Shown one piece after another: positions 11,627 to 46,397 of a DNA stretch of 64,000 nucleotides. The translations under genes were made by a program, and so were the position numbers. This DNA is from an uncultured bacterium (GTDB taxonomy: Bacteria; Bacteroidota; Ignavibacteria; Kapaibacteriales; UBA2268). A model generated the notes under the pieces. The model worked only from the letters and a program-made list of their open reading frames with translations, did not search any database and was not told the DNA's origin. How positions within the stretch are numbered: the first letter of the stretch is position 1; every line of letters begins with the position of its first letter. Location of the stretch: positions 3,197,166-3,261,165 of the forward strand of contig CALNXW010000016.1 in the NCBI GenBank assembly GCA_942490685.1, in the 5' to 3' direction.

Positions 11627-12226
11627 ATGAAAATAGATACTATAATTGATATAAATAAACCTATTGTCCTGGCTTCACAATCTCCTCGTAGAAAATTTCT
11701 ACTAGAAATGCTTGGGCTTGAATTCGATATTTTTCCTGCTAGCATAGATGAAGTAAATTCCAATAACTTGCCCCCTGCTGAGTACGTTATGCATCTAGCT
11801 GCTGAGAAGGCTCGAATGTCTGCTTCTCTGACTGACAAGAAAGCTCTTTTTATTGGTTCAGACACAATTGTAGTAAAAGGTGATGTCGTTCTGGAAAAAC
11901 CTATTGACAACACTGATGCTGTTAAAATGCTAAAAACTCTTAGCAATTCTACTCATACTGTTTATACTGGAATTGCTCTTTTTGATAATGAAAAAGAAGA
12001 TATTACTATCGATTATGAAGCTACTGAAGTAAGCTTCAGAGAACTAAATGATAGAGAAATACAAGCCTATGTAGCAACAGGCTCACCGCTGGACAAAGCA
12101 GGAGCTTACGGAATCCAAGATGATTTTGGTGCTGTATTTGTAAATAAAATTGTAGGTTGCTATTATAATATTGTAGGGCTTCCGCTTCAATTACTCTATA
12201 AAATGCTAATGGAGAAGTTTAAATAG
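11627..12226 (+). CDS. maf: Maf-like nucleoside triphosphate pyrophosphatase
   Basis: 199 aa with LASQSPRR..L...G..F......DE and GSDT(IV) motifs. Confidence 0.85.
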   Translation: MKIDTIIDINKPIVLASQSPRRKFLLEMLGLEFDIFPASIDEVNSNNLPPAEYVMHLAAEKARMSASLTDKKALFIGSDTIVVKGDVVLEKPIDNTDAVKMLKTLSNSTHTVYTGIALFDNEKEDITIDYEATEVSFRELNDREIQAYVATGSPLDKAGAYGIQDDFGAVFVNKIVGCYYNIVGLPLQLLYKMLMEKFK

Positions 12227-15490: not shown

Positions 15491-15514
15491 CAATACTCTT
15501 ATCTGCTATAACGG
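15491..15514 (+). repeat. Short fragment of repeat module X (tail portion CAAT.CTCTTATCTGCTATAA.CG)
   Basis: 21 of 23 positions match the 3' part of X2 (27911-27933). Confidence 0.45.
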
Positions 15515-15658: not shown

Positions 15659-15799
15659 TATGCCGGACAGGTTCGCCAATGAAATAGACGCAAAACCACG
15701 GTACTGCATCTCAACGCGCTTTCTCTCGCTCGATAACCAAGGGAAGATGAGATTGCGGGATTGGGGAATAGCCTGAATTTTGGTGCTAGGCAGTATGAT
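15659..15799 (+). repeat. Repeat module Y, copy 1 (non-coding, about 140 bp), upstream leader of a small two-gene cassette
   Basis: Left flank (ATGCCGGACAGGTTCGCCAATGAA) and right flank (GGGAAGATGA.ATTGCGGG..TGGGGAATAGCCTGA.TTTTG.TG.AGGCAGTATGAT) are collinear with the reverse complement of 27640-27792. The core (15699-15742) matches the other copy only after inversion. Confidence 0.7.
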
Positions 15800-15855
15800 A
15801 GTAGAATAGCGAGATTTAACTCTCTTGACAGTTATAGAAGCAAATATACTTCTCA

Positions 15856-16192
15856 ATGTCAGTGATGCTAACTGAGGGGCCAGAAGCCGCTGGTAAAACT
15901 GCTGCAAAAATTGATGCTATAATAAAAAAGATGTCAGAAGCTGAAGTGCAAATGGGTATTGATCAGGGAAAGGCTACTGTAAACGTGATTGCTGAGTTGG
16001 TTCGTTATTTGGTCCAGCTGGAACTGCAACTGGAGCACTTATAGGAGGTATTTCTGATTCATTATTTGGAGGAGTAACAGGTTATTTTGTTGGACAAGAA
16101 GTTGCAACTACAGCATATGATTATATCACAACTAAAGGTCTCAAAATGGAAGATGTAAAGAATAGTAATGAGGGAGAAAAAAATGCACCATA
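15856..16192 (+). pseudogene. Frameshifted glycine-zipper (GxxxG-rich) small protein gene
   Basis: Frame A gives MSVMLTEGPEAAGKTAAKIDAIIKK...NVIAELV. Frame +1 continues as GSLFGPAGTATGALIGGISDSLFGGVTGYFVGQEV...EGEKNAP*. A single-nucleotide indel near 15995-16010 would join the two frames. Confidence 0.4.
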
Positions 16193-16572
16193 AATTTGAT
16201 AAGATTTTTTGGCGAATAGAAAACGAAACATATTTGCATGCTCTTTTTGTAAATAGTCGTTCAAATGAAATAGTGCATTTTAAACATGGAACATTTGAAT
16301 TGCAATCGACAAATATTATAAAAGGAAGTCATAACTGGGAAGAAATCCTTTATGATAATGCTATAGTTGAGATTAGAGTTAATGAAGAGTCGAATATATT
16401 TATTATGTTTTCAGACGCAGCTCTGGGAGTGATTATGTATTGTCCATATTTTGATGGAGCGGAGGTAGAAGTAATACAGGAACTTAATATTTATAACAAA
16501 GAGGATAAAGAGGCGTATATTTCTTTTTTGGAAGATTATGATAGCTGTGATATCGAACTAGAGATAAGTTAG
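16168..16572 (+). CDS. Hypothetical 134-aa cytoplasmic protein overlapping the end of the glycine-zipper ORF (possibly an immunity-like partner)
   Basis: The ORF overlaps the upstream stop (…AATGCACCATAA…). No signal peptide. No recognisable family. Confidence 0.45.
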   Translation: MREKKMHHKFDKIFWRIENETYLHALFVNSRSNEIVHFKHGTFELQSTNIIKGSHNWEEILYDNAIVEIRVNEESNIFIMFSDAALGVIMYCPYFDGAEVEVIQELNIYNKEDKEAYISFLEDYDSCDIELEIS

Positions 16573-16716
16573 AAAATATTGTGATTCTATAAGTTTTACA
16601 AATCCCTGCGCCAAATAGACCACAAAAAATACGAACTTACTGACTAACCTCAATCACAAAAAAAGAGGCTACTCTTTTTCAGAATAACCTCTTGATATTA
16701 TTTATTGCAAAAAGAC

Positions 16717-18192
16717 TTAGTATTTATATAAACTGCCTTGTCTGTCTTCTGCTTTTTTATCCCATTCTTTTGCAACTGTTTCTAATAGTTTAATCTTATC
16801 AGCTCTGAGTTTTTCAATATCCAGACCGATAAATTTCTGAGCTTTTTCTTTTGTAGAGATATCCGGAAGTTGTACCGGAATTTCAACTCCGTGTTTTACA
16901 AATATAGTTGCTAAAACACCTCTTGCTTTCTCTGCTTTTGCTATAGAAGTTCCCATAACTCTCATTGCTTCTACAGGAGAGTGGAAGCCAACTCCGTTAG
17001 CCGCAGCTACCCAATCCCATCTCCACTGTGCGTGACGGATAAGAGTAAGTACAGGAGCCATTTCTTCTTCTGTTGCACCTGCATCCCATGCAAGTCCGGC
17101 TTCAATGTGAGCTTTTGCTAAGGCATCTTCTGCAAGACCGCGCAATTCTAATAATTTATCTTGTCTTTCATAAACATCTTTCAATAATTGCTCTTCGCTT
17201 TCTTTGTGGCAAGTCTGGCAGGCATTTGCCATATTTGCAAGAGGCGATTGGATGTGGTGATCAGTAAATTTCACTCCGCCTTCCACTTTATAAGGCATGT
17301 GGCAATCAGCACATGAAACGCCGCGCTTAGCATGAATACCGGTCATAAATAGTTCGTAATCAGGGTGCTGAGCTTTCAGCATTGGCGTACGGCTGATCTT
17401 ATGAGTCCAGTCAGTAAATTCTATATTATCATAATACTCTTCCATATCATCTGCAGAGAAACCTTTATCCCAAGGGAATGTCAAATATGCACCCGGTTTC
17501 TGGAAATAATATTCTACGTGACACTGAGCACACACTAAAGAGCGCATTTCATTATGAGTAAAGTCTTCAATTTTCTTACCTTGTCTCTCAAATGCTTCTA
17601 CAAGAGCAGGTCTTGTAATTGTTAAATCCATAGTGTTCGGATCATGGCAGTCAGCACATCCGATAGGATTTACAATTTCTTTACCTTTTTCTATCCATTT
17701 TCCACTATAAAATTCTTTAGGCCCTACTTCTTTCATCATTCTCACAACATCTGTACTTTTGCAAGACCAGCATGTAGCAGGCATAGGACTTGTTTCAACA
17801 CCACCAGTTCGAAGAGTGTTTCTAATATCTTTAACAGCCATTGCATGGCCTCTTCCCTGGTTATAGTCTTTAGAAAAACCGTAACCTGCCCACATAACTA
17901 TTAAATTAGGAAATTCTTCTAAATAGTCACGCATAGAGGAGCCGCCATGTTTTGAGCGGAAATTAGTATCTCTTGTATTCAAATAAGTATCAAATTCTCT
18001 AGGGAAGTTTTTACCCCATATTTCATTTCTATATTCATTTTCGCCAATTGGTTCAACCATTTGCATTTTAGCAACTTTTTCCTGGCGACGTTCCATAATG
18101 CTGCTAGCCAGCATAACTCCAAGAACAACAATAATAACTGTAGCTAAGAAAAGCCCCCAATAGAGCCACTTACTTGATTTTTCATTAGCCAT
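16717..18192 (-). CDS. nrfA: Cytochrome c nitrite reductase, pentaheme catalytic subunit NrfA
   Basis: N-terminal TM or signal segment. CWSCK (lysine-ligated active-site heme) plus four CxxCH motifs (CADCH, CAQCH, CADCH, CQTCH). Confidence 0.92.
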   Translation of the reverse strand: MANEKSSKWLYWGLFLATVIIVVLGVMLASSIMERRQEKVAKMQMVEPIGENEYRNEIWGKNFPREFDTYLNTRDTNFRSKHGGSSMRDYLEEFPNLIVMWAGYGFSKDYNQGRGHAMAVKDIRNTLRTGGVETSPMPATCWSCKSTDVVRMMKEVGPKEFYSGKWIEKGKEIVNPIGCADCHDPNTMDLTITRPALVEAFERQGKKIEDFTHNEMRSLVCAQCHVEYYFQKPGAYLTFPWDKGFSADDMEEYYDNIEFTDWTHKISRTPMLKAQHPDYELFMTGIHAKRGVSCADCHMPYKVEGGVKFTDHHIQSPLANMANACQTCHKESEEQLLKDVYERQDKLLELRGLAEDALAKAHIEAGLAWDAGATEEEMAPVLTLIRHAQWRWDWVAAANGVGFHSPVEAMRVMGTSIAKAEKARGVLATIFVKHGVEIPVQLPDISTKEKAQKFIGLDIEKLRADKIKLLETVAKEWDKKAEDRQGSLYKY

Positions 18193-18211
18193 GATAAACC
18201 TCTAATATAAA

Positions 18212-18838
18212 TTAATCTAACATTTTTTCTAACCATTCGGGCACAGCGCGTTTCATGGAAGGAACGCGAGCATAAGGAGTTGACGCCTGACTGGAAACCC
18301 TTCCGTGAGGTACCTCTCGGTGGCAGTCCCAGCAAAGTTTCCCTTCACCGTGTTTATAATTATGTCCTGTAACATTTGCAGCAGAAACAGGGTTCACCTG
18401 CTGGTAGTGACAGCGCATGCAATTGTCTTGGACCACCGCTTTTCCGGCTTCTTTGATTCTAATTACCTGAGGTTCAGTCCTAGTAGTAAATACATAGGCA
18501 TGCCTCATGCCGTCCTGTGCTTTAAAGAGATACTTGCGAAATGGATTATCATGAGGTACATGGCAATCGTTGCAGGTAGTCCATTCTCTATGACTACTGT
18601 GATTCCACGTAGCATATTGCGGCACCATCACATGACAATTAACGCAAGTTTCAGGATCATCAGAAAGGTAAGAAGCTGCATTCGATATATAAAAAGTACC
18701 GATAGCCAGCCCGAATATAACTCCGGTAAGGATGGTAGCCACTAGTCGCCACCCGGGAGGAGGTATAAGCCTTCTGATTAATGATTGATTGTTTACCATA
18801 GTATCTCTATAGTTAGTGGATACAAAATCTATTTGCAT
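18212..18838 (-). CDS. nrfH: NrfH (NapC/NirT-family tetraheme membrane cytochrome c, quinol oxidase partner of NrfA)
   Basis: One TM helix and four CxxCH motifs (CVNCH, CNDCH, CMRCH, CWDCH), immediately upstream of nrfA. The true start may be the internal Met near 18799. Confidence 0.88.
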   Translation of the reverse strand: MQIDFVSTNYRDTMVNNQSLIRRLIPPPGWRLVATILTGVIFGLAIGTFYISNAASYLSDDPETCVNCHVMVPQYATWNHSSHREWTTCNDCHVPHDNPFRKYLFKAQDGMRHAYVFTTRTEPQVIRIKEAGKAVVQDNCMRCHYQQVNPVSAANVTGHNYKHGEGKLCWDCHREVPHGRVSSQASTPYARVPSMKRAVPEWLEKMLD

Positions 18839-19106
18839 AATAAGAATAAATTGTCTTAAATCAAAACAATATTTATCCCTTCAGAGATTTTATTTTTATG
18901 GCTCATTTATAATACACGTAAAATACTGCAGAAAAGTATTATGGATTTGATATAAAGATTAGGAATAAAAAATGTAACAAAATTAGATTCAAGTTGTATA
19001 TAGTATAGCAGTAACTTATTTATTTTGATATCTTTGTAATATGACAAAATGCAGTCTTCTTTTGCTCGTTTTGGCATAAATGGAATTATAATATCCGAGG
19101 GAAAAA

Positions 19107-20387
19107 ATGAGATTAATATACTTCACTTGCTTAATATTTATTTTTACTTTTGCATACTCTTTTGCAGATACTGATAATATAGAATTGGGCAATACAGAGC
19201 CTTTTTACTTCGATGCGATTATATCCAAAGGGCAAATCCAAGATTCTGCTCGAATGGACATATTTGTTTTGGTCCCTTATGAGTTTTTGATGTTTAATAA
19301 CAATAACAACAAAGTGTATGGTGCTAAATACAGTCTTGTAGTTTCTATATTTGATGAGAACGGTCGGAAAGTCTTTACAGATAAAAAAGAAGAAACTATA
19401 GTCACAGATGATTACTTTAAAGCCCAGGGAAGAGATGCTGATTTTGATGCAAATCAACTTCTGGTCAATCTTTCTCCCGGCAACTACACTATCAAATTAG
19501 TTCTTAGAGACGAAATCAGTAAAAATGAAAAAGAAAAAAGCAGAAACATGACAGTCCTTGATTTTGCTAAGTATCCTTTTTCGCTTAGTGGCATTATGCT
19601 GGTAAGCGCAATTGAAGAAAATCAGGGAAGTTTCACTGCGACTCCCCACGTAAGTGATGATATTGGGGCTCTCACAGATGGATTTTTTGCATTTTTTGAA
19701 GTATACAACACAAAAGACCTTAGTTCTGTTGATTTATATTATGAAATAAAAGATGCTGACGATAGAATTATTGCTGAAAGTGGTGCAATTACAAAAGAAC
19801 TTAAAGGGCAACACACTCAGCAATATGTAAAGATCCCCCGTCAAAAGGATATGGTAACAGGCAAGTATGCTTTAAAGCTTATTGCTAAACATAATGATGA
19901 TACTCTTGCCGTAGCTAAACGTTCTATCAAATTCTCTCAAACAATCGGCGGAATGGTCTTAAAAGATATCGATGAATCTATAAGACAATTAAGATATGTA
20001 GCGAAATCTGAAGAGCAAGAATTGATGGAAGATGCTCCGGATGAAGCATCTAAGCAAAAATTGTTTAAAGAATTTTGGCAAAAGCTTGACCCAACTCCTG
20101 CAACCGAAAGAAATGAAGCTTTCCAGGAATATTACTCTCGAATTGCTTTTGCAAACAGAAGATTCAAGTCACACAGGGAAGGATGGCTATCTGATATGGG
20201 AATGGTATATGTTATATTCGGCAATCCGCGCAACGTAGAACGTGGCTCCAGATACGGTGATTCGAGTGTCTATGAAATTTGGTCTTATGGTAATAACAGA
20301 CAATTTGTTTTCAGAGATAATTCCGGAATGAATGATTTTAGGCTAGTGTCACCTATGGGTATAACTGAAAAATATAAATACGAATAA
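19107..20387 (+). CDS. GWxTD-domain protein (secreted)
   Basis: Signal peptide. C-terminal region with GWLSDMG...YGNPR (GWxTD signature). Confidence 0.7.
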   Translation: MRLIYFTCLIFIFTFAYSFADTDNIELGNTEPFYFDAIISKGQIQDSARMDIFVLVPYEFLMFNNNNNKVYGAKYSLVVSIFDENGRKVFTDKKEETIVTDDYFKAQGRDADFDANQLLVNLSPGNYTIKLVLRDEISKNEKEKSRNMTVLDFAKYPFSLSGIMLVSAIEENQGSFTATPHVSDDIGALTDGFFAFFEVYNTKDLSSVDLYYEIKDADDRIIAESGAITKELKGQHTQQYVKIPRQKDMVTGKYALKLIAKHNDDTLAVAKRSIKFSQTIGGMVLKDIDESIRQLRYVAKSEEQELMEDAPDEASKQKLFKEFWQKLDPTPATERNEAFQEYYSRIAFANRRFKSHREGWLSDMGMVYVIFGNPRNVERGSRYGDSSVYEIWSYGNNRQFVFRDNSGMNDFRLVSPMGITEKYKYE

Positions 20388-20489
20388 TAGTGAACCTTTC
20401 TCTTTTTTTGTTCGTAAATTGTTTTAAATATCGTGATTTTTTATTTTTGTAGTTAAAATAACGTAGTGAACCATAGTTAATTTGAACTC

Positions 20490-21545
20490 GTGGGAGGTTT
20501 ATTAATGTTTCGGTTTGAACATGTAGAACTATTATGGCTATTGGCAGTGCTTCCCGCTTTCTATTTCTTATACGTATTATTTAGATGGAAGCGCAAAAAA
20601 ACTCTTGAGAAATTTGGCGACTTGGAAACTGTAGCTCGCCTTATGCCTAACACATCAAAATATAAGCCGACTGTAAAGATGATACTTTTCCTTTTTGCCT
20701 CGGCTTTATTCATCGTAGGGATGGCAAACCCTCAATTTGGAACTAAACTCCAGGAAGTAAAACGTCAGGGCGTGGAAGTAATGATCGCTCTCGACGTTTC
20801 AAACTCTATGCTTGCAGAGGATTTAAAACCTAACAGACTCCAAAGAGCAAAACAAGCTGTCAGCAGACTTATTGACAAATTAGAAACTGACAGAATAGGC
20901 ATCGTTGTTTTTGCAGGTGACGCATATTTACAGCTGCCTTTAACAACTGACTATGCTGCCGCTAAACTTCTTCTTTCCAGTATCACAACTGATATGATTG
21001 AAACTCAGGGAACAGCCCTCGGAGCTGCAATCGAAATGTCAATGGATTCGTTTTCTGAAGATAATAAAAAACAGAAGGCGCTCATTATCATCTCCGATGG
21101 AGAGAATCATGAAGATGATGCATTAAGCATGGCAAAAAATGCTTTAGAAAATAATATTATCATCCATACCATAGGCATGGGACTTGAAGACGGAGCTCCA
21201 ATTCCAATATACAGGAATGGTGATATCGCTTCTTATTATAAAGACAGCGATGGTAATACTGTAATTTCTAAATTGAATGCCGGGATGCTATCTCAATTGG
21301 CTGAAGTTGCAGGCGGTAGATTTACCCGTGCAACACTGGCAAATATGGAATTATCAGAATTGCTTGATGAAATTGCAGGCATGGAAAAACAGGAATTTGG
21401 AACAAAAGAATATACAGATTATGTTAGCAGATATATGTATTTCATACTTCCTGCACTTTTAATATTTATTTTTGAATTTATGCTTTCTGAGTCAAAAAAC
21501 AGACTTCTTACTTCTATGAATCTATTTGGAGGAGAAGGAAAATGA
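20490..21545 (+). CDS. batA: BatA/BatB-like von Willebrand factor A domain membrane protein
   Basis: N-terminal TM segments. VWA domain with MIALDVSNSM (MIDAS-type DxSxS). Confidence 0.85.
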   Translation: MGGLLMFRFEHVELLWLLAVLPAFYFLYVLFRWKRKKTLEKFGDLETVARLMPNTSKYKPTVKMILFLFASALFIVGMANPQFGTKLQEVKRQGVEVMIALDVSNSMLAEDLKPNRLQRAKQAVSRLIDKLETDRIGIVVFAGDAYLQLPLTTDYAAAKLLLSSITTDMIETQGTALGAAIEMSMDSFSEDNKKQKALIIISDGENHEDDALSMAKNALENNIIIHTIGMGLEDGAPIPIYRNGDIASYYKDSDGNTVISKLNAGMLSQLAEVAGGRFTRATLANMELSELLDEIAGMEKQEFGTKEYTDYVSRYMYFILPALLIFIFEFMLSESKNRLLTSMNLFGGEGK

Positions 21546-22456
21546 GACTAAATACAATCCTTAAAAATACATTTGTTATTACATCTATATTTTTTGCTTC
21601 TTTTTGTGCAACTTTTGCGGATAAAACCGAACATACTCATTTAGAAAAGGGTAATAAACTCTATGAAGAACAGAAGTATGAAGATGCAGAAATGGAGTAC
21701 AGAAAAGCTAAAGAAGCCAAACACGAATCGCAAATGGCAAAATTCAATATAGGTGATGCTCTTTATAAACAAGAAAAATATAAAGAAGCTGCTGAGATTT
21801 TTGAGAATCTAACTAATGAAGACCTGGATGATCAAACAAAAGCCTCTGCTTTTCACAATCTTGGTAATTCTCTTTTGAAACAACAGGATTTCAACACGAG
21901 TATTGATGCTTATAAAAAAGCATTAAAACTTAACCCGGATGACGATGAAGCAAGGTATAATCTTGAATATGCTAAAGCAATGTTAAAACAACAGCAACAA
22001 CAACAGCAACAAAATCAAGATAACAAAGACCAGAAAGATAAAGACAAACAAGATCAACAAAACAAAGATCAAAAGGATAAAGATAAACAGGAACAGGATA
22101 AAAAAGACCAAAACGAACAAGATAAGAAGAATCAACAAAAGCAGGATCAGCAAAACAAAGATCAGAAGGATAAAGACAAAAAAGATCAGCAAAAGCAAGA
22201 CCAACAAAACAAAGACAAAAACGAACAGGATAAGCAGGAACAAGATAAAAAAGATCAACAGCAAGGCGAACAAAATAAAGACCAGAAAGGAAATAAAGAG
22301 CAACAAAAACCACAACGTAAGAAAAATGAGCTTTCAAAAGAAGACGCCGAGCGTATGCTTAAAGCCTTAGAGAATGAAGAAAAGAAAATTCAGAAGAAAA
22401 TACAATTCAAAAAAGGCAAAAAAGGCGAAGAAACAAATATAGAGAAGAATTGGTAA
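21542..22456 (+). CDS. batC: BatC-like TPR protein with a long Q/K/D-rich low-complexity tail
   Basis: TPR-like N-terminal half, then about 100 aa of (QDKKDQQNK)-like imperfect repeats. Overlaps the batA stop by 4 nt. Confidence 0.75.
   Translation: MRLNTILKNTFVITSIFFASFCATFADKTEHTHLEKGNKLYEEQKYEDAEMEYRKAKEAKHESQMAKFNIGDALYKQEKYKEAAEIFENLTNEDLDDQTKASAFHNLGNSLLKQQDFNTSIDAYKKALKLNPDDDEARYNLEYAKAMLKQQQQQQQQNQDNKDQKDKDKQDQQNKDQKDKDKQEQDKKDQNEQDKKNQQKQDQQNKDQKDKDKKDQQKQDQQNKDKNEQDKQEQDKKDQQQGEQNKDQKGNKEQQKPQRKKNELSKEDAERMLKALENEEKKIQKKIQFKKGKKGEETNIEKNW
21990..22290 (+). repeat. Imperfect tandem codon repeats encoding the Q/K/D-rich tail of BatC
   Basis: Seen directly: reiterated CAAGATAA/CAAAGATCA/AAGGATAAAGA units of about 27 nt. 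Confidence 0.7.
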
Positions 22457-22496
22457 GTCAATTTATGGGTTTGGAAACAAATTAATTTGAAGTGCG

Positions 22497-24311
22497 ATGA
22501 AAAAGTTAAGTAGTTACATAGTTGTTTTTATGATGATGCTGACTGCTGCATACTCAGCAGATTTTAAAGCATCTCTAAACCAGAATCCGGTTACACAAGG
22601 TGAAAGATTTACTGTATCTTTCTCTATAGATGAACAAGCTTCGAACTTTCGCAATCCGGATTTTAGAGGTCTGCAAATTGTATCTGGACCAAATACAAGC
22701 AGACAAAAACAGATAATCAATGGGGTTCTGTCTCTATCTTATACTTTCACTTATTACTTAGTTGCTCCGAAAGAAGGAACTTATAACATAAGCCCGGCTT
22801 CTATAAGAGTGAAAGGTGAAACGATTAAGTCTAATAGCTTAACCGTAAAAGTAGTACCTCCCTCTGAAGCTGAACAGCAAAGAAGGCAGGCTGCCAAAAA
22901 CAGAGAATCTCAGATAAGTCAGCAGGCTCGAGATTTCCTCAAAAAGAATATTTTTATTAGAGCCAATTTCAGCAAAAACTCAGTTTACATTGGTGAGGCT
23001 ATTAATGTAAGCTACAAGCTTTATATACATCCTCAAGTAAACATCATCGGAAGTGACGAGCCTCAAATTGGATTTGATGGTTTCTGGGTTGAAGATTTAG
23101 ATCCGTCTCAAAGAAATGCCGAGATCTTTAATGGCGTCAGATATGATGTATATGAATTAAAAAAATCTGTTTTATATCCTCAAAAAACAGGGAAAATAAC
23201 GATAGACCCAATGGAGATGATGATTAAAGCACGACTCAGAATACAAAGCAACAACCAACGCAGAAGAAGCCTATTTGATGACTTCTTTAGCAGAGGAGAA
23301 TATAGAGATTTTGAATACAATGCTAAATCTTCAGCGGTAACAGTTGACATTAAAGATACACCTGACGGCGCTCCTCTTGGTTTTTCCGGTGCAGCGGGCG
23401 ACTTCAAAATGGAAGCTTGGTTCGATAACACAGAAGGTTCTACAAACGAACCAATGTCAATGAAAGTAAAAATCAGCGGCAAAGGGAATATGAAGATGAT
23501 AGAGCCTTTGGATATAAATTTCCCGCCTGATTTTGAAGCTTATGATCCGAAAACATCTGACAACACTAAACCTGGGCTTGGCGGAACTACCGGTAATAAA
23601 GTATTCGAATACTTAATTATTCCAAGGAATCCTGGTGAATTCAAAGTTGGACCAATTGAATTTAGCTATTTTGATTTAAGTGACAAATCTTATAAAACTA
23701 TAAAATCAGATCAATTTGCTTTAAAAATTGCAAAAGGAAAAGATTCTCCTGCGGGTAGTTCTGTTTCAGGAGTAAATAAAGAAGATATTCAATATTTAGG
23801 TAAAGATATCAGATTTATCAAAACGGATGCAGTGTTACATAAAGAATCAGAAAGCTTCTTTGGAACAACATTCTTCTATGTCTTGCTCATTGCTCCGATT
23901 GGATTTGTATTCGTAGTGCTTGTTGCTAAAAAGAAAAACGACGAACTCTCTCAGGATAAAATGGCAATGAAAAATAAATTTGCCAGTAAAATTGTAAAAA
24001 AACGACTTGCATTGGCTAAAAAATGCTTAGATGCTGACGATAAAAATGGCTTTTACGAAGAAATGGTAAGAGCTCTATGGGGCTATTTAGGAGATAAACT
24101 CTCTATACCTACAGCAGAGCTTACAAAAGACAAAGCAGCAGAGGCTTTGGCAAAATTGAATATCAATCAGGAATTATCCGATAGATATCTTAATGTAATT
24201 GAAAGTTGCGAATTTGCCAGATATGCACCTGCAGGAATGGCAAGTGACATGAAGACACTATATGATGATGCGGCCAAAGCGATTACGGATTTGGAAGGAG
24301 GTCTGAAATGA
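22497..24311 (+). CDS. batD: BatD-like protein
   Basis: 604 aa. Signal peptide and a C-proximal TM segment. Positioned between batC and batE. Confidence 0.75.
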   Translation: MKKLSSYIVVFMMMLTAAYSADFKASLNQNPVTQGERFTVSFSIDEQASNFRNPDFRGLQIVSGPNTSRQKQIINGVLSLSYTFTYYLVAPKEGTYNISPASIRVKGETIKSNSLTVKVVPPSEAEQQRRQAAKNRESQISQQARDFLKKNIFIRANFSKNSVYIGEAINVSYKLYIHPQVNIIGSDEPQIGFDGFWVEDLDPSQRNAEIFNGVRYDVYELKKSVLYPQKTGKITIDPMEMMIKARLRIQSNNQRRRSLFDDFFSRGEYRDFEYNAKSSAVTVDIKDTPDGAPLGFSGAAGDFKMEAWFDNTEGSTNEPMSMKVKISGKGNMKMIEPLDINFPPDFEAYDPKTSDNTKPGLGGTTGNKVFEYLIIPRNPGEFKVGPIEFSYFDLSDKSYKTIKSDQFALKIAKGKDSPAGSSVSGVNKEDIQYLGKDIRFIKTDAVLHKESESFFGTTFFYVLLIAPIGFVFVVLVAKKKNDELSQDKMAMKNKFASKIVKKRLALAKKCLDADDKNGFYEEMVRALWGYLGDKLSIPTAELTKDKAAEALAKLNINQELSDRYLNVIESCEFARYAPAGMASDMKTLYDDAAKAITDLEGGLK

Positions 24312-25066
24312 GAAAATTAGTTTTAATACTCGGATTGATATTTGCAATTTCTTCACATCTATTAGCAGATGCTTCTGAAGATCTTTTCAAAAAAGCAAAC
24401 GATCACTATATGAAAGAAGAGTTTTCTACTGCAATAGATATTTATGAAGACCTTACAGAGCAAGGCTACCAGTCTGCAGAATTATATTATAACCTGGGAA
24501 ATGCTTATTTCAAGTCTAACTTAATTCCTTCGGCGATATTAAATTTTGAAAGAGCTAAAAGGCTTGCTCCTGGCGATGAAGACATAAACTTCAACTTGAA
24601 GATTGCAAACCTGCAAACTGTTGACAAAATAGAAGTGATGCCGGCTCCATTTTTTGCAGAGTGGTGGCATGGAATTCGAAGTGTGTTTTCTTCCGGCATG
24701 TGGGCAGGTATTTCTATTTTAGCCTTCTGGCTTGCAGCTGCAGCCTTTATTGCTTTCTTGTACATAAGAAGTCCCGGCACAAAGAAAATCAGTTTTACAG
24801 CCGCTTCTGCTCTTGTAATGATAACACTAGTTTGTTTTGTCTTCGCGATGCAGAGCTACGACGAAGAAACAAACAGAAAAGAAGCAATAGTTTTTTCTGA
24901 AAGCTCTTATGTTAAAACCTCGCCTGACGAAGATTCTACAGATTTAGTAATATTACATGAAGGCACAAAGCTAGAAGTAATGGACGAATTGGGTGAGTGG
25001 AGAAAAATCAGATTAGCAGACGGAAATGTTGGCTGGATTTTGAAAACAGATATTGAAATAATATAG
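24308..25066 (+). CDS. batE: BatE-like TPR plus SH3b protein
   Basis: TPR repeats, two TM segments, and a C-terminal SH3b-like region (GEWRKIRLADGNVGWI). Overlaps the batD stop. Confidence 0.75.
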   Translation: MRKLVLILGLIFAISSHLLADASEDLFKKANDHYMKEEFSTAIDIYEDLTEQGYQSAELYYNLGNAYFKSNLIPSAILNFERAKRLAPGDEDINFNLKIANLQTVDKIEVMPAPFFAEWWHGIRSVFSSGMWAGISILAFWLAAAAFIAFLYIRSPGTKKISFTAASALVMITLVCFVFAMQSYDEETNRKEAIVFSESSYVKTSPDEDSTDLVILHEGTKLEVMDELGEWRKIRLADGNVGWILKTDIEII

Positions 25067-25089
25067 TTCTACTCTCTATAATGTCATTT

Positions 25090-25136
25090 AAAGGCTCCGG
25101 CTTATCAATAAGTTGGAGCTTTTCTTGTATGTATTA
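25090..25136 (+). terminator. Rho-independent terminator after the bat operon
   Basis: AAGGCTCC-ggcttatcaataagtt-GGAGCTTT followed by a T-rich run. Confidence 0.55.
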
Positions 25137-25208
25137 TGATGAAGCTTTAGAATATCGGATTTGTCATTAGCTGATAGCATTTTCTAAAATCAGTGACTTT
25201 AAAACGCT

Positions 25209-25236
25209 GTTTTGCGACTATTTCATTGGCGCATCG
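25209..25236 (-). repeat. Fragment of repeat module Y (left-flank portion only)
   Basis: GTTTTGCGACTATTTCATTGGCGCATCG matches the reverse complement of Y1 15666-15694 (CGCCAATGAAATAGACGCAAAAC). Confidence 0.5.
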
Positions 25237-25279
25237 TATCTATAGTCTTTATAAAAGGTTTCTTACTTTTTATCTTAAA

Positions 25280-25386
25280 GGATTCCGAATCAAGTTCGGA
25301 ATGACAGTGCTGGTCATTGCGGACTTGACCCGCAATCCCTTAATCTGCTATAAGCGTGCCACGCGCCCTGCTGCCTTTTGCCTGGG
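25280..25386 (+). repeat. Repeat module X, copy 1 (about 105 bp; the first 60 nt fold as a tRNA-like cloverleaf)
   Basis: Closing stem GGATT/AATCC encloses three hairpins (CCGAA-tcaag-TTCGG, AATGAC-agtgctg-GTCATT, GCGGA-cttga-CCCGC). About 90% identical to 27856-27958 in direct orientation. A T-G wobble change in X2 preserves hairpin 1. Confidence 0.7.
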
Positions 25387-25472
25387 ATAATGGAAAAAAT
25401 AAATTTTCAAAGAACTTGAAAAAACCTTAATTAAAAGCATCATAAATGCAAAAACAATATTTATGTATTATC

Positions 25473-26123
25473 TTAACTATTTCTTACCGGCACCAAATCA
25501 TCCCATTTATTTTGCTTGTCTTCTAATAAGATATTTTTCAACTCATTATTCACATATATTTTATTATATGAAACCCAATTTATTCCATAAGTCTCTGCTG
25601 ATCTTACTATTGGAAGAGTGACTTCTTCTTTAAATGCCGGAATAAAATCATCACGAATAGGATTGAATTTCTTTGTCCCACATACATCACAAGTTTCTTC
25701 CACATATTTATCAATGTCAATTGGATATCTTAATCTTGGAATTCCCAGCTGTAATATCTCATCAAATGGAGTGTCTTTTTTATGATTTATAACTTCACGG
25801 TTACCAATACCTAGTGGTTCTAATCTTTTTAAGTAATATTCTTTCTCCACAAAAAGCGTATCAGATTCCCATGTTGCAGAAAAAAACTTATTCTTTTTCA
25901 ACGAAGGTATTTTTGACAATCTAAAAGGGTTAATTTGATGTTTACTGGATTTACAGTTTGGACAAAGACTTTTATCAAATACATTTTTTTCATATTCATA
26001 ATCTCCATCAGGCATAGGAAAACCACATTCTCTATAACGCCAAAACCATACATAATTAGCTTCTAATACTTCTTTTTTAGAAAACTCTGCAATAACCCTT
26101 ATATAAGAGTCTTTACCTGTCAT
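25473..26123 (-). CDS. Hypothetical 216-aa protein with two CxxC pairs (CPNC...CDVC, zinc-ribbon-like)
   Basis: The ATG at 26123-26121 overlaps (TGATG) the reconstructed end of the upstream 46-aa ORF. No recognisable family. Confidence 0.55.
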   Translation of the reverse strand: MTGKDSYIRVIAEFSKKEVLEANYVWFWRYRECGFPMPDGDYEYEKNVFDKSLCPNCKSSKHQINPFRLSKIPSLKKNKFFSATWESDTLFVEKEYYLKRLEPLGIGNREVINHKKDTPFDEILQLGIPRLRYPIDIDKYVEETCDVCGTKKFNPIRDDFIPAFKEEVTLPIVRSAETYGINWVSYNKIYVNNELKNILLEDKQNKWDDLVPVRNS

Positions 26124-26164
26124 CAAGTTATCTTTATGTAACGTCCTAAAATAAGTTGACAGAT

Positions 26165-27028
26165 TTAATTATCAAAATAATCCCTGGTAAAATTTTTATC
26201 GGGGATTTTATGTATATAATCTGGAGTCATCATTTTTAAAGCTAAATGAGGTCTATAAGAATTATAAAGTTCAATAGCTTCTCTTACAATGTATTCCGCC
26301 TGCAAGATTGATTTGAGTTTACCATCTAAATAAAATTCTTCCTTGATAGTTCTATTCATTCTTTCTGCAAGTGCATTCTCATATGGATCGTACTGCTCTG
26401 TCATGCTGATTTTGATATTGTTTCTTTTCGCTGTTTCAGTATAGTCATGGCTGCAAAATTGCAACCCTCTATCAGAATGGTGTATCAAGGTTCTATTTTG
26501 ATAACAACGGTTCTGAATAGCCATTTTAAGAGCTTTCAGAGATTCTTCAGCTCTCATATTGTCTGCTAAATTAAATCCCATTATTCGCCTTGAAAATGCA
26601 TCTGTTATAAGAGTTAAATAGCAATTTCCCTCATCTGTTTTCAAGTATGTTATATCACTTACCCAAACCTGTTCAGGAGCTGTCGCATTCATATCTTTTA
26701 CAATATTTGGATACTTTCTTAACCAGTGCTTGGACATAGTAGTCTGAATGTATCTTTTTCGAGCTCTAATAAGTAAATTTGCATCACGTAATATGCTAAA
26801 CAGCTTGTCTCTTCCACACTTTATACCAAGTTCATCTAGTTTAGGACTTATAAGAAAATATAGCTTTCTTGTGCCTATACGCGGCAGTATCTTACGATGT
26901 TTACATACCTCCGCTACTATCTTTGAATACTCTTGCTTCTTAGATTGTTGATGTAATTGCTTATAATAATTTTGTCTGCTATAGCCTAATATCGTACATA
27001 CTTTACTTACTGTTGTTCTTGCTGTTTT
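26165..27028 (-). CDS. IS3 transposase OrfB (DDE/rve integrase core), expressed by a -1 frameshift from orfA
   Basis: The -1 frame is open from the GAAGAAAAAC slippery run (...YQRRKTARTTVSKVCTILGYSRQNYYKQ...) and continues into the 190-aa ORF MSKHWLRKYPN...HHSDRGLQFCS...E with the rve catalytic region. Confidence 0.8.
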   Translation of the reverse strand, partial: KTARTTVSKVCTILGYSRQNYYKQLHQQSKKQEYSKIVAEVCKHRKILPRIGTRKLYFLISPKLDELGIKCGRDKLFSILRDANLLIRARKRYIQTTMSKHWLRKYPNIVKDMNATAPEQVWVSDITYLKTDEGNCYLTLITDAFSRRIMGFNLADNMRAEESLKALKMAIQNRCYQNRTLIHHSDRGLQFCSHDYTETAKRNNIKISMTEQYDPYENALAERMNRTIKEEFYLDGKLKSILQAEYIVREAIELYNSYRPHLALKMMTPDYIHKIPDKNFTRDYFDN

Positions 27029-27426
27029 TCTTCTTTGATAATCTTGTACGATTCGGCTAAGTACTTTTTTCTAATATTCGTATCAAACATTTCGTCGGCT
27101 ACATCTATGGCCTTGTTTAAGATTTCCTTGTCTAACTCTAATTCCTTTATACGCTTTTCTAGAGCTTTTATCTGCTTATTAGGTACAGGTTTCTTTTTCA
27201 TATTGACCTCTGCTTGCCAGTTTAATCTACCGTGCTTTCTTAACCATACTAAAACAGTTGCACGACCTTGAATGCCGTATTTCCGTTGAGCTTGTTTGTA
27301 GGTTAAGTAGCCTTTTTCTACTTCATCTACTACCTGCAATTTGAAAGCCAAACTATAATCTTTTTGAGTACGCTTGATTTTTACTGCGTTTTGTTGTGAT
27401 TCCATTATACCATCCTTTTGTGTCAA
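27007..27426 (-). CDS. IS3 transposase OrfA (HTH)
   Basis: HTH region YSLAFKLQVVDEVEKGYLTYKQAQRKYGIQ, followed by a leucine-zipper-like KALEKRIKELELDKEIL. The probable real start is MESQQN. Confidence 0.85.
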   Translation of the reverse strand: MTQKDGIMESQQNAVKIKRTQKDYSLAFKLQVVDEVEKGYLTYKQAQRKYGIQGRATVLVWLRKHGRLNWQAEVNMKKKPVPNKQIKALEKRIKELELDKEILNKAIDVADEMFDTNIRKKYLAESYKIIKEEKQQEQQ

Positions 27427-27448
27427 CTCTTTTTAGGACGGGGCATTA

Positions 27449-27576
27449 TGCTCTTTAAAAAAATCTAAAGGAACTTTGATTGAAGAGTCTTTTTTTAGTT
27501 TGATACCATGAGATTTAATATATTCTTTTTTTTCATCAATCTCATGGCGAGTATATACTATTACCAATTTTTCCAT
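27449..27576 (-). pseudogene. Small ORF (46 aa before insertion) whose 3' end is cut by the IS3 insertion
   Basis: MEKLVIVYTRHEIDEKKEYIKSHGIKLKKDSSIKVPLDFFKEH, then it reads into the IS IRR. Removing the IS and one TTA copy restores ...KEHKIT* with its TGA overlapping the ATG of the 216-aa gene. Confidence 0.55.
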
Positions 27577-27639
27577 TTTTACATTCCTATTTTATCAAGA
27601 TTAGCAAATATAATCTTTGATGATTTTGGCAGTAACGCG

Positions 27640-27792
27640 ATCATACTGCCTTACAGCAAAAATCAGGCTATTCCCCAGCCCCGCAATTTCATCTTCCCGC
27701 TCCATGCCGTTACACTTCGACTCGCTTTGCTCGCTCAGTGACCTTGAAGCGTGGTCTGGCGTATTCTTCATTGGCGAACCTGTCCGGCATGA
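27640..27792 (-). repeat. Repeat module Y, copy 2 (reverse orientation), immediately 5' of the 46-aa ORF
   Basis: See Y1. Its own conserved right flank contains a GGCAGTA-tgatcgcgt-TACTGCC hairpin. The core (27698-27754) is inverted relative to Y1. Confidence 0.7.
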
Positions 27793-27855
27793 GCATACCA
27801 AAGAGGCGCGCCTCATGGGGAAGTAGTTGTTACGTGAAAGAACTTTTAGCCTGAA

Positions 27856-27958
27856 GGATTTCGAATCAAGTTCGGAATGACAGTGCTGGTCATTGCGGGC
27901 TTGACCCGCAATCTCTTATCTGCTATAAGCGTACACGCCCTGTGCTGCCTTTTGCCTG
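27856..27958 (+). repeat. Repeat module X, copy 2
   Basis: Direct repeat of 25280-25386. Confidence 0.7.
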
Positions 27959-27985
27959 AGCTATTTGGGAAATACAGTTTAAAAT

Positions 27986-28125: not shown

Positions 28126-30513
28126 CTACAATCCTAACTGAAAACCGATAAAGACACTTCTCTCTGCAGCAGGGAAAAAGAATCTTCCTTCTGCGCCGGC
28201 TGCATAAAGTTTGTTAAACAAGTTTACAACCTGAGTATGTATTTTGAAGCTTTCTGCACCTAGAATATCTTCGAATGTATATGCTACATCCAGATTAAAG
28301 ACCATAAAAGCGTCTAAAGTATTATCAATATAAAACTCTGAGCTTTCCTTTAAGTCTTTCATTATCACTTCGTCAGTAGTCAGCATATCTCCGTAGTTAT
28401 CAGTTTTCGAATCACCCAAGTATCTGCCTGACAGATTAAAGTATAAGTTTTTATATTCATAAATAAAACCAAAATTTGCCATCAAGCTAGGGAATCCTGC
28501 AATATCATTTCCCTCAAGAGATGTTTTATCGCCATTTTCAGCTAAGTAATCCCATTCCAGTATTTCATTTTTAGAAAATGTAGCATTTGCATATGGTTTT
28601 ATACTTCCCGGTATACCATCTTTAATCAGATAAGATGCCTGCAATTCTATGCCGGAGTGGCGGGTTCTCGGAGCATTGCCGTCCACAGGCAAACCAAATA
28701 TATCTAACTCACCTGTTTTCACAAGTTCATCAAAATATTCCATCCAGTACCCATTGATACTGAAGTGCACATTTTCATCTCTGTATGTCCAGCCAAGTTC
28801 AACATCCAGCATTTTCTCAGGAGTAACCGTAGGATTTTCAAAATCATAATAAATATTATCACCATCTTTTCTGGCTTCAAACAAAGGATGAGAACCTGAG
28901 AAAGAGGAAGAAGCATCATATAAGTTCTTCATGCGGGGTTCGCGAGTTGTATATGAAACTGAACCAAACATAGTTTGATTATCATCTATATTCCATGTAG
29001 CTCCCACTCTTGGATTTACAAAGAAATAGTTTATGTCAAATAACTTATCACCATTCCCAATTGTATTACCATCTTTGTCTAAGTAAGTGGAATATACTCC
29101 GCCAAACTTTTCATTGTCGATAGAGTATTTATTATATACAAATTGAGCTTCCGCACTTAGCAGCAAATCTTCTGTTGCCTGATATTGTTCACGGAAGAAG
29201 ACAGACATAATGTCTCTAATTCCGTTGTATTCATAGACTTTATAATCCGGATCAAAACCTTCCGGAAGATTCTCAGCAAAAAGTATTTTCATCCAGTGAT
29301 CGGATCTGTGGCTTCTTATTTCAGCTCCCAGAGTAAACTGATGGTCTCCATGACTCCATATCAATCTCGGGATCCAGCCCCCATGTCTGTTCCCAACATA
29401 CCATCTAGCAATTGGATTTCTAGGAACCTCTTCATCTGCATAGCCATTTGCTTCATTGAAGTTAAAGTAAGACAAATCGTACATCCAGGTGCTCAACTCA
29501 TCAAATTGGCCATCCCCTGTATAGTAAAACAGCGAAGACTTGAGTGAAAGATCATCTGAGATTTGCCAGTCATTCAACAATTCATAGTGAGGCTGAGAAA
29601 AAGCTTCTACATCATGTTTGCTTCTCTCTGTAGGCCACTGAACTACTTTTCCGGTAGAATCGTAATTCCACCAGCTATAGTTTTTAAGCCTCAAGTCTTT
29701 ATCTTCAATATGAGCTTTAGGTATCCCCTGATAGACTAACCCATCAGTTAAAGGTCCACCAAAGATATTAATCTGAGTAGTAAGGTTTTCATCAAATCTG
29801 GCTGCACTAAGGAAAAAGCTATTAAGCTTAGCCCATGAGTGATTTCTATATCCATTTGAGTTAATTCTGGATAAACGACCATAAAATGCATATTTGCCGT
29901 CAACCAAACCTGAAGAGGCTTCCATAGAGAATTTGCTTAAGCTCTGAAGTGTGTTTTTCGACTCACTTCCGTATTCCTGGTAGCCAATCCCTGAATAAAG
30001 CTTAATACCGGGATTGTTTACAAAGTTTGAAGTAACCAGATTTATGCTTCCTCCAATTGCTGCTGCACCATAATTCATCATACCTGCGCCACGCTGCACT
30101 TGGATATTTTCAAGATTTGACTGAATATCAGGAAAATCAATCCAGTATACATTATGATCTTCAGGATCATTTTGAGGAATACCATTGATCAAAACTGAAA
30201 TTCTTCTTTGGTCAAATCCCCTCATAGATAAATTAGAGTAGCCAACTCCATTACCGGATTGGGAATAAGTATGCACAGAAGGCATAGCGTTTAGGAACAT
30301 CGGAAGATCCGCAACTGTGTGCGTCATTTCTATTTCCTGTCTGTCTATTTCTGAGAATGCAACAGGCGTTATTCTTTCTACTGCACGAGTAGAAGTAACA
30401 GTAACGCTTGGCGTTCGGTATACTTTTATAGTATCAGATGTTTGTTTTTGAGCAAAAAGGCTTATAGAAAAGCAGCTTAAAGCTGCAGCGGCTATAAACA
30501 ATCTTTTTAGCAT
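28126..30513 (-). CDS. TonB-dependent outer-membrane receptor
   Basis: Signal peptide MLKRLFIAAAALSCFSISLFA (start placed at this Met). Plug-domain motifs and a C-terminal beta-barrel ending in an aromatic residue. Confidence 0.85.
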   Translation of the reverse strand: MLKRLFIAAAALSCFSISLFAQKQTSDTIKVYRTPSVTVTSTRAVERITPVAFSEIDRQEIEMTHTVADLPMFLNAMPSVHTYSQSGNGVGYSNLSMRGFDQRRISVLINGIPQNDPEDHNVYWIDFPDIQSNLENIQVQRGAGMMNYGAAAIGGSINLVTSNFVNNPGIKLYSGIGYQEYGSESKNTLQSLSKFSMEASSGLVDGKYAFYGRLSRINSNGYRNHSWAKLNSFFLSAARFDENLTTQINIFGGPLTDGLVYQGIPKAHIEDKDLRLKNYSWWNYDSTGKVVQWPTERSKHDVEAFSQPHYELLNDWQISDDLSLKSSLFYYTGDGQFDELSTWMYDLSYFNFNEANGYADEEVPRNPIARWYVGNRHGGWIPRLIWSHGDHQFTLGAEIRSHRSDHWMKILFAENLPEGFDPDYKVYEYNGIRDIMSVFFREQYQATEDLLLSAEAQFVYNKYSIDNEKFGGVYSTYLDKDGNTIGNGDKLFDINYFFVNPRVGATWNIDDNQTMFGSVSYTTREPRMKNLYDASSSFSGSHPLFEARKDGDNIYYDFENPTVTPEKMLDVELGWTYRDENVHFSINGYWMEYFDELVKTGELDIFGLPVDGNAPRTRHSGIELQASYLIKDGIPGSIKPYANATFSKNEILEWDYLAENGDKTSLEGNDIAGFPSLMANFGFIYEYKNLYFNLSGRYLGDSKTDNYGDMLTTDEVIMKDLKESSEFYIDNTLDAFMVFNLDVAYTFEDILGAESFKIHTQVVNLFNKLYAAGAEGRFFFPAAERSVFIGFQLGL

Positions 30514-30831
30514 GGAAAAATCCTTGAATTTAATGATACAAAAGATTTTCCAATTGGGGATATGAAAAGAGAGAGCAAAAAAGCACAATAAATGAAGTGC
30601 CTTCCGTATTCCCTACGCCGGTATGATCCGGATCAGGTTCCAAGAGTGTTCTCTCAGGGGCATATTTGCCCCACCTCCAACGGAAATTGTTGCAATATAC
30701 GTAGTATTACTCTAATTATTTTGTTTATGAGTATATTCTATTGCAGGCAAGCCAAGTAAATGAGTTTTATGTAATAAAAAAGGGTAGAAAAATCTTCTTT
30801 CCCTACCCTCTCTTGATTCTATTTTTATTTT

Positions 30832-46127: not shown

Positions 46128-46195
46128 TAGTGCATTTGTTCTATGATCTTTAAGGAAAATAAAAAAAGCTAACTTGATTGCAAGTTAGCTTTGTG

Positions 46196-46267
46196 TGATC
46201 CTAGGGGGATTCGAACCCCCACTGCCAGCGTGAAAGGCTGGTGACCTAACCGTTAGTCGATAGGACC
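46196..46267 (-). tRNA. tRNA-Glu (anticodon TTC), copy 1
   Basis: Cloverleaf read by hand: acceptor GGTCCTA/TAGGATC, D-arm GAC-TAACGGTTAG-GTC, anticodon arm CCAGC-CTTTCAC-GCTGG, T-arm GGGGG-TTCGAAT-CCCCC, discriminator A. CCA is not encoded. Followed by the hairpin GCTAACTTG-caat-CAAGTTAGC and a T-run. Confidence 0.85.
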
Positions 46268-46397
46268 ATTTTGTCTGCTGTGTGTCTCTAAAAGAGAGTT
46301 CAAAAATAAGGAGTTTGTTTTAAACTTCCAAATCTTTTTTTACCTATTTACAAGGTTTTCAAAAACAAAGCTAACTTGAAATCAAGTTAGCCCTTGG

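Follow-up and report, generated by a model that had tools for sequence, protein, structure and literature searches.

The closest described systems to the locus reported here are the orphan rhs-CT/rhsI modules of Enterobacteriaceae, Dickeya and Salmonella (Poole et al. 2011, PMC3150448; Koskiniemi et al. 2014, PMC3967940). Part of the conserved core is kept in such modules as coding sequence; initiation signals are as a rule absent, and in-frame stop codons occur in some. Immunity genes lie behind the modules, which are arrayed as silent cassettes and can re-fuse to the main gene by homologous recombination via the shared core stretch (PMC3150448, PMC3967940). We analysed a 64,000-nucleotide stretch, which will be referred to as the window, of contig CALNXW010000016.1 from an uncultured bacterium of the Kapaibacteriales (assembly GCA_942490685.1). 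A repeated sequence in this window, module Y, had been proposed from the letters alone (the original prediction) to be a shared 5′ leader of small overlapping two-gene cassettes. Our comparison with related genomes argues strongly for another origin: Y is very probably the conserved 3′ end of an Rhs (YD-repeat) core coding sequence, kept at the 5′ edge of orphan rhs-CT/immunity modules. The part of the prediction that holds is the broader one: a conserved module heads variable or orphan cassettes of a toxin/immunity-like kind, which fits orphan rhs-CT/immunity modules.

The window locus and its relatives share with the enterobacterial modules a core piece, a variable toxin and a small downstream immunity open reading frame (ORF), and also arrays behind a full-length gene (here in the relatives), stop codons, the lack of proper starts, and insertion sequences (IS) or rearrangements. 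The host, in contrast, is a Kapabacteria-like (Chlorobiota/Bacteroidota-group) genome, and the window copies are dispersed and pseudogenised, lack a DPxGL-type boundary and have no main rhs gene within 64 kb. The retained homology amounts to ~200-250 nt broken by small palindromic insertions, compared to 522 bp in Salmonella LT2. Orphan cdiA-CT/cdiI modules (PMC3150448) are likewise built from a conserved pre-toxin region (VENN in their case), a variable tip and an immunity gene, arranged as tandem silent cassettes. CdiA, however, carries haemagglutinin repeats in place of the YD repeats of Rhs proteins, and Y has no VENN region and matches the TIGR03696 profile, not CdiA. In orphan immunity arrays of the Vibrio cholerae type VI secretion system (PMC5361080) and of Serratia Rhs (PMC10539506), immunity genes are reported to be kept after loss of the toxin, as in module 2 of the window and in a lone homologue in a relative. 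The arrangement is well known in bacteria and the finding is in this sense an ordinary one, extending the orphan rhs-CT/immunity architecture to Kapabacteria-type genomes.

Copies of Module Y

Module Y is present in two full copies, Y1 on the forward strand (15660-15800) and Y2 on the reverse strand (27790-27640), and in one partial copy on the reverse strand (Y3, 25235-25190), of which 25235-25209 match the first block. The repeat finder paired 15660-15700 with 27790-27750 (block A) and 15741-15799 with 27698-27640 (block B), in both cases in inverted orientation and at 88% identity, and a variable middle of 40-51 nt lies between the two blocks. The counts of the two Y core motifs were reached in none of 100 shuffles, and the predicted repeat is real. 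With a GC content of 44-48%, Y lies above the window (36%). Block A of Y1 (15660-15704) reads MPDRFANEIDAKPRY and block B with its tail (15740-15857) reads REDEIAGLGNSLNFGARQYDSRIARFNSLDSYRSKYTSQ in the Rhs frame; the 5′ end of Y1 is cut at the FGML|MPD position. In Y2, the order of the peptides is RLKVLSRNNYFP, a 14-nt insertion, FGMLMPDRFANEEYARPRF, a palindromic element and NGMEREDEIAGLGNSLIFAVRQYD.

Larger collections were scanned with two-core or single-block patterns of Y. Two scans of viral contigs yielded no match, the two-core pattern yielded none in the GTDB representative genomes, and the same approach gave four matches in the JGI metagenomes, each of which proved to be a chance match on inspection.

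Y and the End of the Rhs Core

Counterparts of Y were found in metagenome-assembled genomes (MAGs) of Candidatus Kapaibacterium and Kapabacteria, where they form the final ~65 codons of an Rhs core (…YFPFGMLMPDRFANE..PRFGFNGMEREDEIAGLGN…YDSRIARF..LD). The comparison was made mainly with the Candidatus Kapabacteria MAG OY761611.1 (L009) and Candidatus Kapaibacterium sp. OZ223202.1 (L010); the closest relative available, a Candidatus Kapaibacterium (L008), shows 80-91% DNA identity to the window. The most direct evidence comes from L010, in which blocks A and B of Y are contiguous coding sequence inside an intact YD-repeat gene of 2705 aa. Its tip reads PRLKVLSRNNYFPFGMLMPDRFANEEDAKPRFGFNGMEREDEIAGLGN…YDSRTARRWNLDP, its residues ~2340-2450 read YKSLRQIGHKEYELTDHLGNVRLTFSDYRLKTTSYNSPRLKVLSRNNYFPFGMLMPDRFANEEDAKPRFGFNGMEREDEIAGLGNMYTAKFWEYDSRTARRWNLDP, and it matches YD_repeat_2x and, faintly, an RHS_repeat entry. 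The peptides of Y1 and Y2 are 60-81% and 45% identical to this tip, respectively. The original prediction had named in advance one finding that would tell against a leader, namely that Y turns out to be what is left of a longer, degraded coding gene, and this is what the 2705-aa gene and the TIGR03696 profile point to.

Consistent results were obtained with the DNA. By blastn, Y1 is 83% identical to L010 10076-10151 and L009 3901-3975 and 75% identical to the main rhs gene (L010 8139-8206). Y2 is 79% identical over 213 nt to an orphan 5′ region (L010 9934-10132), 75% to the main gene (L010 8029-8120) and 88% to L009 5504-5589. Taken together, block B and its tail (~115 nt) are 75-83% identical to the core tips of the relatives. 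Direct reading of the sequence shows that most of the positions at which Y1 differs from Y2 within block B are synonymous when translated in the Rhs frame.

On the protein level, the relevant family is TIGR03696 (NCBIfam, RHS repeat-associated core domain, Rhs_assc_core), with a curated cut-off of 32.5 bits. Block B falls within the 5′ portion of each of the four large ORFs of L009 (blastn of the window), which begin …DYYPFGMLVPDNYY..ARFGFNGMERDDEIAGVGNSLNFGARQYDSRIARF…; two of them score 39.1 and 37.7 bits, and the two truncated ones 30.1 and 27.0 bits. A search of representative sequences at full sensitivity with the 71-aa ORF spanning Y2 matched three proteins, P0007-P0009 (254-364 aa; E 9e-13), in their N-terminal residues 1-50 only, two of which proteins pass the cut-off (P0007 and P0008, 33.9 and 34.7 bits). 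Y1 is 79% identical to residues 25-63 of P0007 (tblastn) and 75% identical to the 375-aa ORF of L009. At the level of sequence, these alignments show Y to be homologous to Rhs core-tip coding DNA and protein.

Several observations weigh against this assignment. All Y peptides of the window stay under the TIGR03696 cut-off: Y1 reached 17.6 bits as it stands (E 0.004) and 29.3 bits when repaired (E 9e-7), and Y2 gave no match. The family assignment is therefore transitive, via the relatives. A full-length rhs gene was not found within the 64-kb window, in which the 2705-aa protein matched only with its residues 2375-2443 (tblastn), so that the delivery part, comprising the N-terminal region and the YD repeats, is absent from the modules. 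The DPxGL-type motif at the boundary between core and toxin, which reads NNPINFIDLNG in P0007 and NPVIYKDPGGD in the 331-aa ORF of L009, is missing from both window copies; its loss is consistent with decay and is no argument for another family. Finally, neither of the two putative immunity proteins described below matched any immunity family or gave a usable structure model.

Arrays in Related Genomes

In the relatives, Y-like tips head intact gene pairs. The L009 array consists of four pairs of a large and a small ORF (381+151, 375+153, 331+155 and 357+267/274 aa). Among the small ORFs, one belongs to Pfam Imm26 (E 9.7e-9), and one of the toxins has weak similarity to Ntox44. In L010, two ~2700-aa genes and a 185-aa ORF immediately precede the gene of P0007, and a 238-aa ORF comes after it. 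A scan with the tip peptide showed that each intact tip in the fetched Kapabacteria/Chlorobiota loci runs for 292-363 aa to a stop codon and that a same-strand ORF of 142-274 aa follows each intact tip ORF at -67 to +28 nt. In the window, by comparison, the two tips run into a stop after 41 and 36 codons. The C-terminal regions behind the tips of the relatives are mutually unrelated; that of module 1 in the window is unique and that of module 2 is deleted. Gene callers start the orphan ORFs of the relatives at an ATG inside block A (MKKTLSHASRSLSEQSESKCNGMEREDEIAG). For the relatives' as for the window ORFs, toxin and immunity activity is putative and assigned by analogy.

In a Chlorobiota MAG, a 259-aa ORF stands behind another decayed Rhs tip (NGMKRDYEIADVGNGYTAKF*QFDSRTGR; L013, 1361-1447), a relic of the same kind as those in the window.

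Two Decayed Modules

The features of the window that belong to the two modules are listed in Table 1.

Table 1: Features of the two Rhs-related modules, with positions in the window.
Feature	Position	Strand	Basis
Y1, Rhs core tip remnant	15660-15857	+	tblastn, blastn, TIGR03696 profile
Decayed C-terminal (putative toxin) region, module 1	15853-16192	+	tblastn to P0007, DNA alignment
Intact 134-aa ORF in immunity-gene position, module 1	16168-16572	+	25-nt overlap with toxin remnant
Further Rhs core fragment, YKSLRQIDHKKYELTD*	16597-16647	+	blastn, translation
X3 (25390-25268) and Y3 (25235-25190, ANEIVAKQRFKVTD…)	25190-25390	-	repeat comparison, alignment
263-aa gene in immunity position with two CxxC pairs, module 2	25473-27576	-	homologues, restored ORF
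IS3-family insertion sequence, 1309 bp, apparently intact	26137-27445	-	Pfam, junctions compared with intact L008 gene
Final bases of deleted putative toxin gene, module 2	27577-27600	-	blastn to L009
Y2, Rhs core tip remnant	27601-27852	-	blastn, tblastn, alignment
30-nt imperfect palindrome in Y2, GTCACTGAGCGAGCAAAGCGAGTCGAAGTG	27742-27713	-	alignment
14-nt frame-breaking GC-palindrome insertion in Y2	27816-27803	-	alignment
X2, ~110 nt, two hairpins (ATTGCGGGTCAAGCCCGCAAT and GTCATTCCGAACTTGATTCGAAATCC)	27853-27962	-	repeat comparison

In module 1, a 62-aa ORF (15856-16044) behind Y1 goes on in a second, glycine-zipper-like frame to 16192. The original prediction had recognized this second-frame continuation and its overlap with the 134-aa ORF, and both were confirmed; its reading of 15856-16192 as a cargo separate from Y was not. 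The stretch 15853-16011 is 37% identical to residues 96-162 of P0007 (tblastn), in another frame than Y1 and within the same set of matches. Since Y1 and the 62-aa ORF match successive parts of P0007, they were, together with the glycine-zipper frame, once a single rhs-CT gene. Between Y1 and the 62-aa ORF ~100 nt were lost, including the NNPINFIDLNG boundary motif, and residues 64-95 of P0007 have no counterpart in Y1. The frame is broken by a -1 frameshift in the run TTGG|TCC at ~16009-16012, within cgttatttgg|tcc (16003-16022), where P0007 reads …HYLGPAG…. The glycine-zipper matches of the tail in Pfam are weak and sub-threshold (E 0.016-0.9), and a word-index homologue search with the toxin tail recovered only the tail itself. 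This also affects the predicted spacing of 55-75 bp between Y and the next ATG. Measured from the conserved block, the distance is indeed 56 nt for Y1 (ATG at 15856) and 63 nt for Y2 (ATG at 27576), but the homology of Y1 to the toxin genes continues to 15857 and thus crosses the ATG.

The 134-aa ORF (129 aa in the NCBI-derived call, P0010) probably encodes the immunity protein of module 1, a role assigned from its position alone, by analogy with the arrays of the relatives. Profile searches of the cargo proteins, proposed with the original prediction, were run and gave only sub-threshold matches: the 134-aa ORF had no family match in Pfam, PADLOC or the PDB sequences and no homologue except itself in the word-index search. 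The AlphaFold2 model of the 129-aa protein was poor, with a predicted local distance difference test (pLDDT) score of 40.6. Behind this ORF, the core fragment at 16597-16647 adjoins the nrfA terminator. Its counterpart is a core stretch ~110 nt upstream of the tip, with the main-gene peptide YKSLRQIGHKEYELTDHLGNVR, and by blastn its DNA is 82-88% identical to L010 7915-7962 (interior of the main rhs gene), 9824-9867 and 11998-12048 as well as to L009 8771-8806 and 10887-10924. It is the truncated start of a next orphan module.

Three short-read Logan contigs (L006, L007 and L001) end at 15668, 15841 and 16682, the edges of module 1. They represent the same organism from two samples (ERR9670067 and ERR9669565) and are 99.9-100% identical to the window; their ends suggest either repeat-induced breaks or presence/absence variation in the population. 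Synteny with L008 (nrfA, nrfH, GWxTD, batA and following genes) begins directly after module 1, from window position 16652 and L008 position 15524 onward. The left flanks of module 1 differ between the window and L008, and module 1 therefore lies at a rearrangement breakpoint.

In module 2, the two ORFs of 46 and 216 aa that the original prediction took as two genes overlapping by TGATG are one gene of 263 aa, which the IS interrupts at codon 44, leaving exons 27576-27446 and 26133-25473. When the fused 47-aa and 217-aa parts were used as query, four homologues of 248-267 aa (P0003-P0006) covered 93-100% of it, three of the four at 100%. Removal of the IS and one copy of TAA restored an uninterrupted 263-aa ORF that is 89% identical to the 266-aa P0003 without any gap. 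The IS has TG…CA ends, carries orfA (helix-turn-helix, HTH) and orfB (rve) in the usual -1 frameshift arrangement (Pfam rve 5e-24, HTH_28 8e-6) and is flanked by a 3-bp TAA target duplication (27448-27446 and 26136-26134).

The toxin gene of module 2 is almost completely gone. Of the toxin-coding DNA that the orthologous L009 module contains, about 890 nt have been lost from the window after ~27620, and Y2 ends near RQYD. The homology of Y2 spans 27852-27601, and the next bases, 27601-27577, match the last bases of the orthologous toxin gene: 27601-27449 is 81% identical to L009 9977-10128, a match that begins 23 nt ahead of the stop codon of the 357-aa toxin ORF. The surviving toxin 3′ end occupies ~24-45 nt in front of the immunity-position start, and the start of the 263-aa gene lies 24 nt beyond the toxin remnant. 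The predicted spacer of Y2 is thus toxin-gene debris, because the toxin was deleted and its 3′ end kept.

Judging from its position, the 263-aa protein is a putative immunity protein. It had no immunity-family match (sub-threshold matches only in Pfam, PADLOC and PDB), and the AlphaFold2 model of the 266-aa family was poor (pLDDT 41.9). In L009 the orthologue lies 2 nt behind the 357-aa Rhs-tip ORF, and in L008 it stands alone, without Y. The three loci show one module in three states of decay: intact in L009, toxin-deleted in the window and immunity-only in L008. The position of the immunity gene relative to nrfA differs between L008 and the window; recombination between the inverted Y1 and Y2 is one possible cause.

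In systems of this kind, a giant Rhs protein ends in a variable toxin, and a small cognate immunity gene lies behind its gene. Spare pairs of toxin tip and immunity gene retain a short core stretch, giving the homology for displacement from, and recombination back into, a full-length rhs gene. The window very probably contains two such modules, dispersed and pseudogenised, which lie inverted relative to each other around the nrfHA-bat genes. Module 1 consists of the core tip Y1, a broken toxin tip, the intact 134-aa ORF (taken as immunity gene) and the start of the next core fragment; module 2 comprises X, the core tip Y2, the deleted toxin, the IS3-split 263-aa ORF and a nearly erased X-Y3 unit. 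The modules are probably relics by now, with at most the 134-aa gene possibly still useful as orphan immunity gene, and a resident rhs gene in another part of the genome presumably keeps the Y copies alike, through descent or gene conversion.

For the annotation of this region, we suggest replacing the shared leader by the standard terms: pseudogenised orphan Rhs toxin tips, two putative immunity genes, of which one is intact and the other disrupted by an IS, and an IS3 element. No genes should be annotated for the short ORFs of 62 aa and 47 aa or for those of 71-86 aa across Y.

Palindromic Inserts and Element X

Two kinds of small palindromic inserts interrupt the core tips. The 30-nt element interrupts orphan Rhs tips at their FGFNG codons and breaks the frame in Y2. 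It is also present at L009 5516-5545 and L010 10030-10059 and is identical in the three genomes, whereas the flanks of these identical elements are only 75-88% identical; the main rhs gene of L010 does not contain it. A scan limited to exact matches found nine copies in three MAGs (loci L011-L019 included), of which five lie in Rhs tips and the other four between genes, in AT-rich DNA. Because exact copies occur in both settings, the 30-nt sequence is a small dispersed element. In Y1, a diverged inverted copy lies at ~15705-15740, with 0.5% of shuffles scoring as well. In every case, the upstream core frame is uncoupled by the 30-nt element, which also introduces a new in-frame start (MKK…SRSLSEQSESKCNGMEREDEIAG). 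It resembles repetitive extragenic palindromic (REP) and other small palindromic repeats (PMC3733652, PMC3116915) in being a short imperfect palindrome found both within genes and between them in several genomes, but differs in having only nine exact copies in three MAGs and no known associated transposase.

The 14-nt insertion contains a perfect 12-nt GC palindrome and sits at the codon boundary YFP|FGM. The window has GAGGCGCGCCTC there, and the orthologous L009 module has GGGACGCGTCCC at this codon boundary (about 8905-8918); the arms differ and the palindrome is kept. One might take such inserts as a conserved functional mark of orphan cassettes in Kapabacteria rhs loci rather than as incidental damage, a view that we consider unlikely. 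If it were true, the inserts could serve as terminator or insulator hairpins, could act as recombination boundaries limiting tip swaps to the last ~100 nt of the core, or could allow independent translation of orphan toxins.

Element X (~110-120 nt in all, with the hairpins ATTGCGGGTCAAGCCCGCAAT and GTCATTCCGAACTTGATTCGGAATCC) accompanies Y on the module 2 side. X2 is joined directly to the 5′ edge of Y2 and is 92% identical to 25278-25384 (X3). X3 and Y3 form a third, almost erased X-Y unit, located 3′ of the immunity-position gene of module 2 and adjoining the end of batE. No copy of X was present in any related locus fetched. An exact 16-nt fragment of X lies on the opposite strand near Y1, at 15496-15511 (E 0.002).

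Alternative Explanations

That Y is a non-coding shared 5′ leader, be it a promoter, an untranslated region or an RNA element, driving unrelated small two-gene cassettes is barely credible in the light of these data. Both copies do lie upstream of the following ORFs in the same orientation, and since the orphan ORFs of the relatives are called from the block A ATG, the Y region could supply a start codon. The fixed orientation, however, follows from Y being part of the toxin gene, and in the intact 2705-aa gene Y is contiguous coding sequence. The synonymous character of the differences in block B likewise speaks against a leader. The two-gene cassettes themselves dissolved on inspection: the first cargo is a continuation of the Y1 ORF and the second is a single gene. 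Signals expected of a leader were not observed either. A scan of the whole window with the Rfam gathering thresholds found a thiamine pyrophosphate (TPP) riboswitch and two tRNAs only, none of them near Y. Folding energies of both copies on both strands (single-sequence minimum free energy) did not depart from dinucleotide shuffles (z = -0.02, 0.78, 0.07 and 1.16), no sigma-70-like site in Y faces the cargo, and the counts of promoter- and terminator-like sites equal those of shuffles. An integron-like arrangement with attC-type cassettes, to which the X-Y units flanking the cargo had drawn attention, was set aside, Y being coding sequence.

A second possibility is that the whole of Y is a dispersed mobile repeat, a mosaic resembling REP sequences or miniature inverted-repeat transposable elements (MITEs), that came to lie upstream of ORFs by chance. 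The intergenic position of four of the nine exact copies of the 30-nt element in related genomes, the hairpin-rich X in front of both Y2 and Y3, and the elevated GC content of Y would be in line with it. Yet the dispersed part is the small palindromic insert and not Y, blocks A and B are Rhs coding sequence, and the scans of viral, GTDB representative and JGI sequences revealed no copies of Y; we regard this explanation as highly improbable. Somewhat less remote, and still unlikely, is that the modules are working silent cassettes, with Y as the patch of homology that would let a main rhs gene at another site acquire these toxin tips, as in the activation of orphan Rhs in Salmonella. This is established behaviour of orphan rhs-CT modules (PMC3967940), and the similarity of block B and its tail to the core tips of the relatives would suit it. 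The condition of the modules argues against such a role: toxin 1 carries a ~100-nt deletion and a frameshift, toxin 2 is deleted, immunity gene 2 is split by an IS, and frame-breaking palindromic insertions interrupt the core tips. Recombination here could yield only a defective rhs gene. We thus favour the reading of Y as the coding remnant of an Rhs core at the head of decayed orphan modules.

Other Features of the Window

The TPP riboswitch (70.1 bits, 30592-30688, reverse strand) lies directly upstream of an 820-aa ORF (28126-30588), which may encode a TonB-dependent receptor and, if so, a thiamine-related outer-membrane transporter. The two tRNA genes are identical tRNA-Glu(TTC) genes in a ~200-nt tandem duplication (93-94% identical; 46161-46542, reverse strand). 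Between a BatA-like ORF, recognized by homology to L008, and the ORF 22497-24311 lies a 304-aa ORF (21542-22456), in which a repeat with a period of 15 nt (21948-22304, forward strand) encodes a long low-complexity stretch rich in K, D, Q and N.

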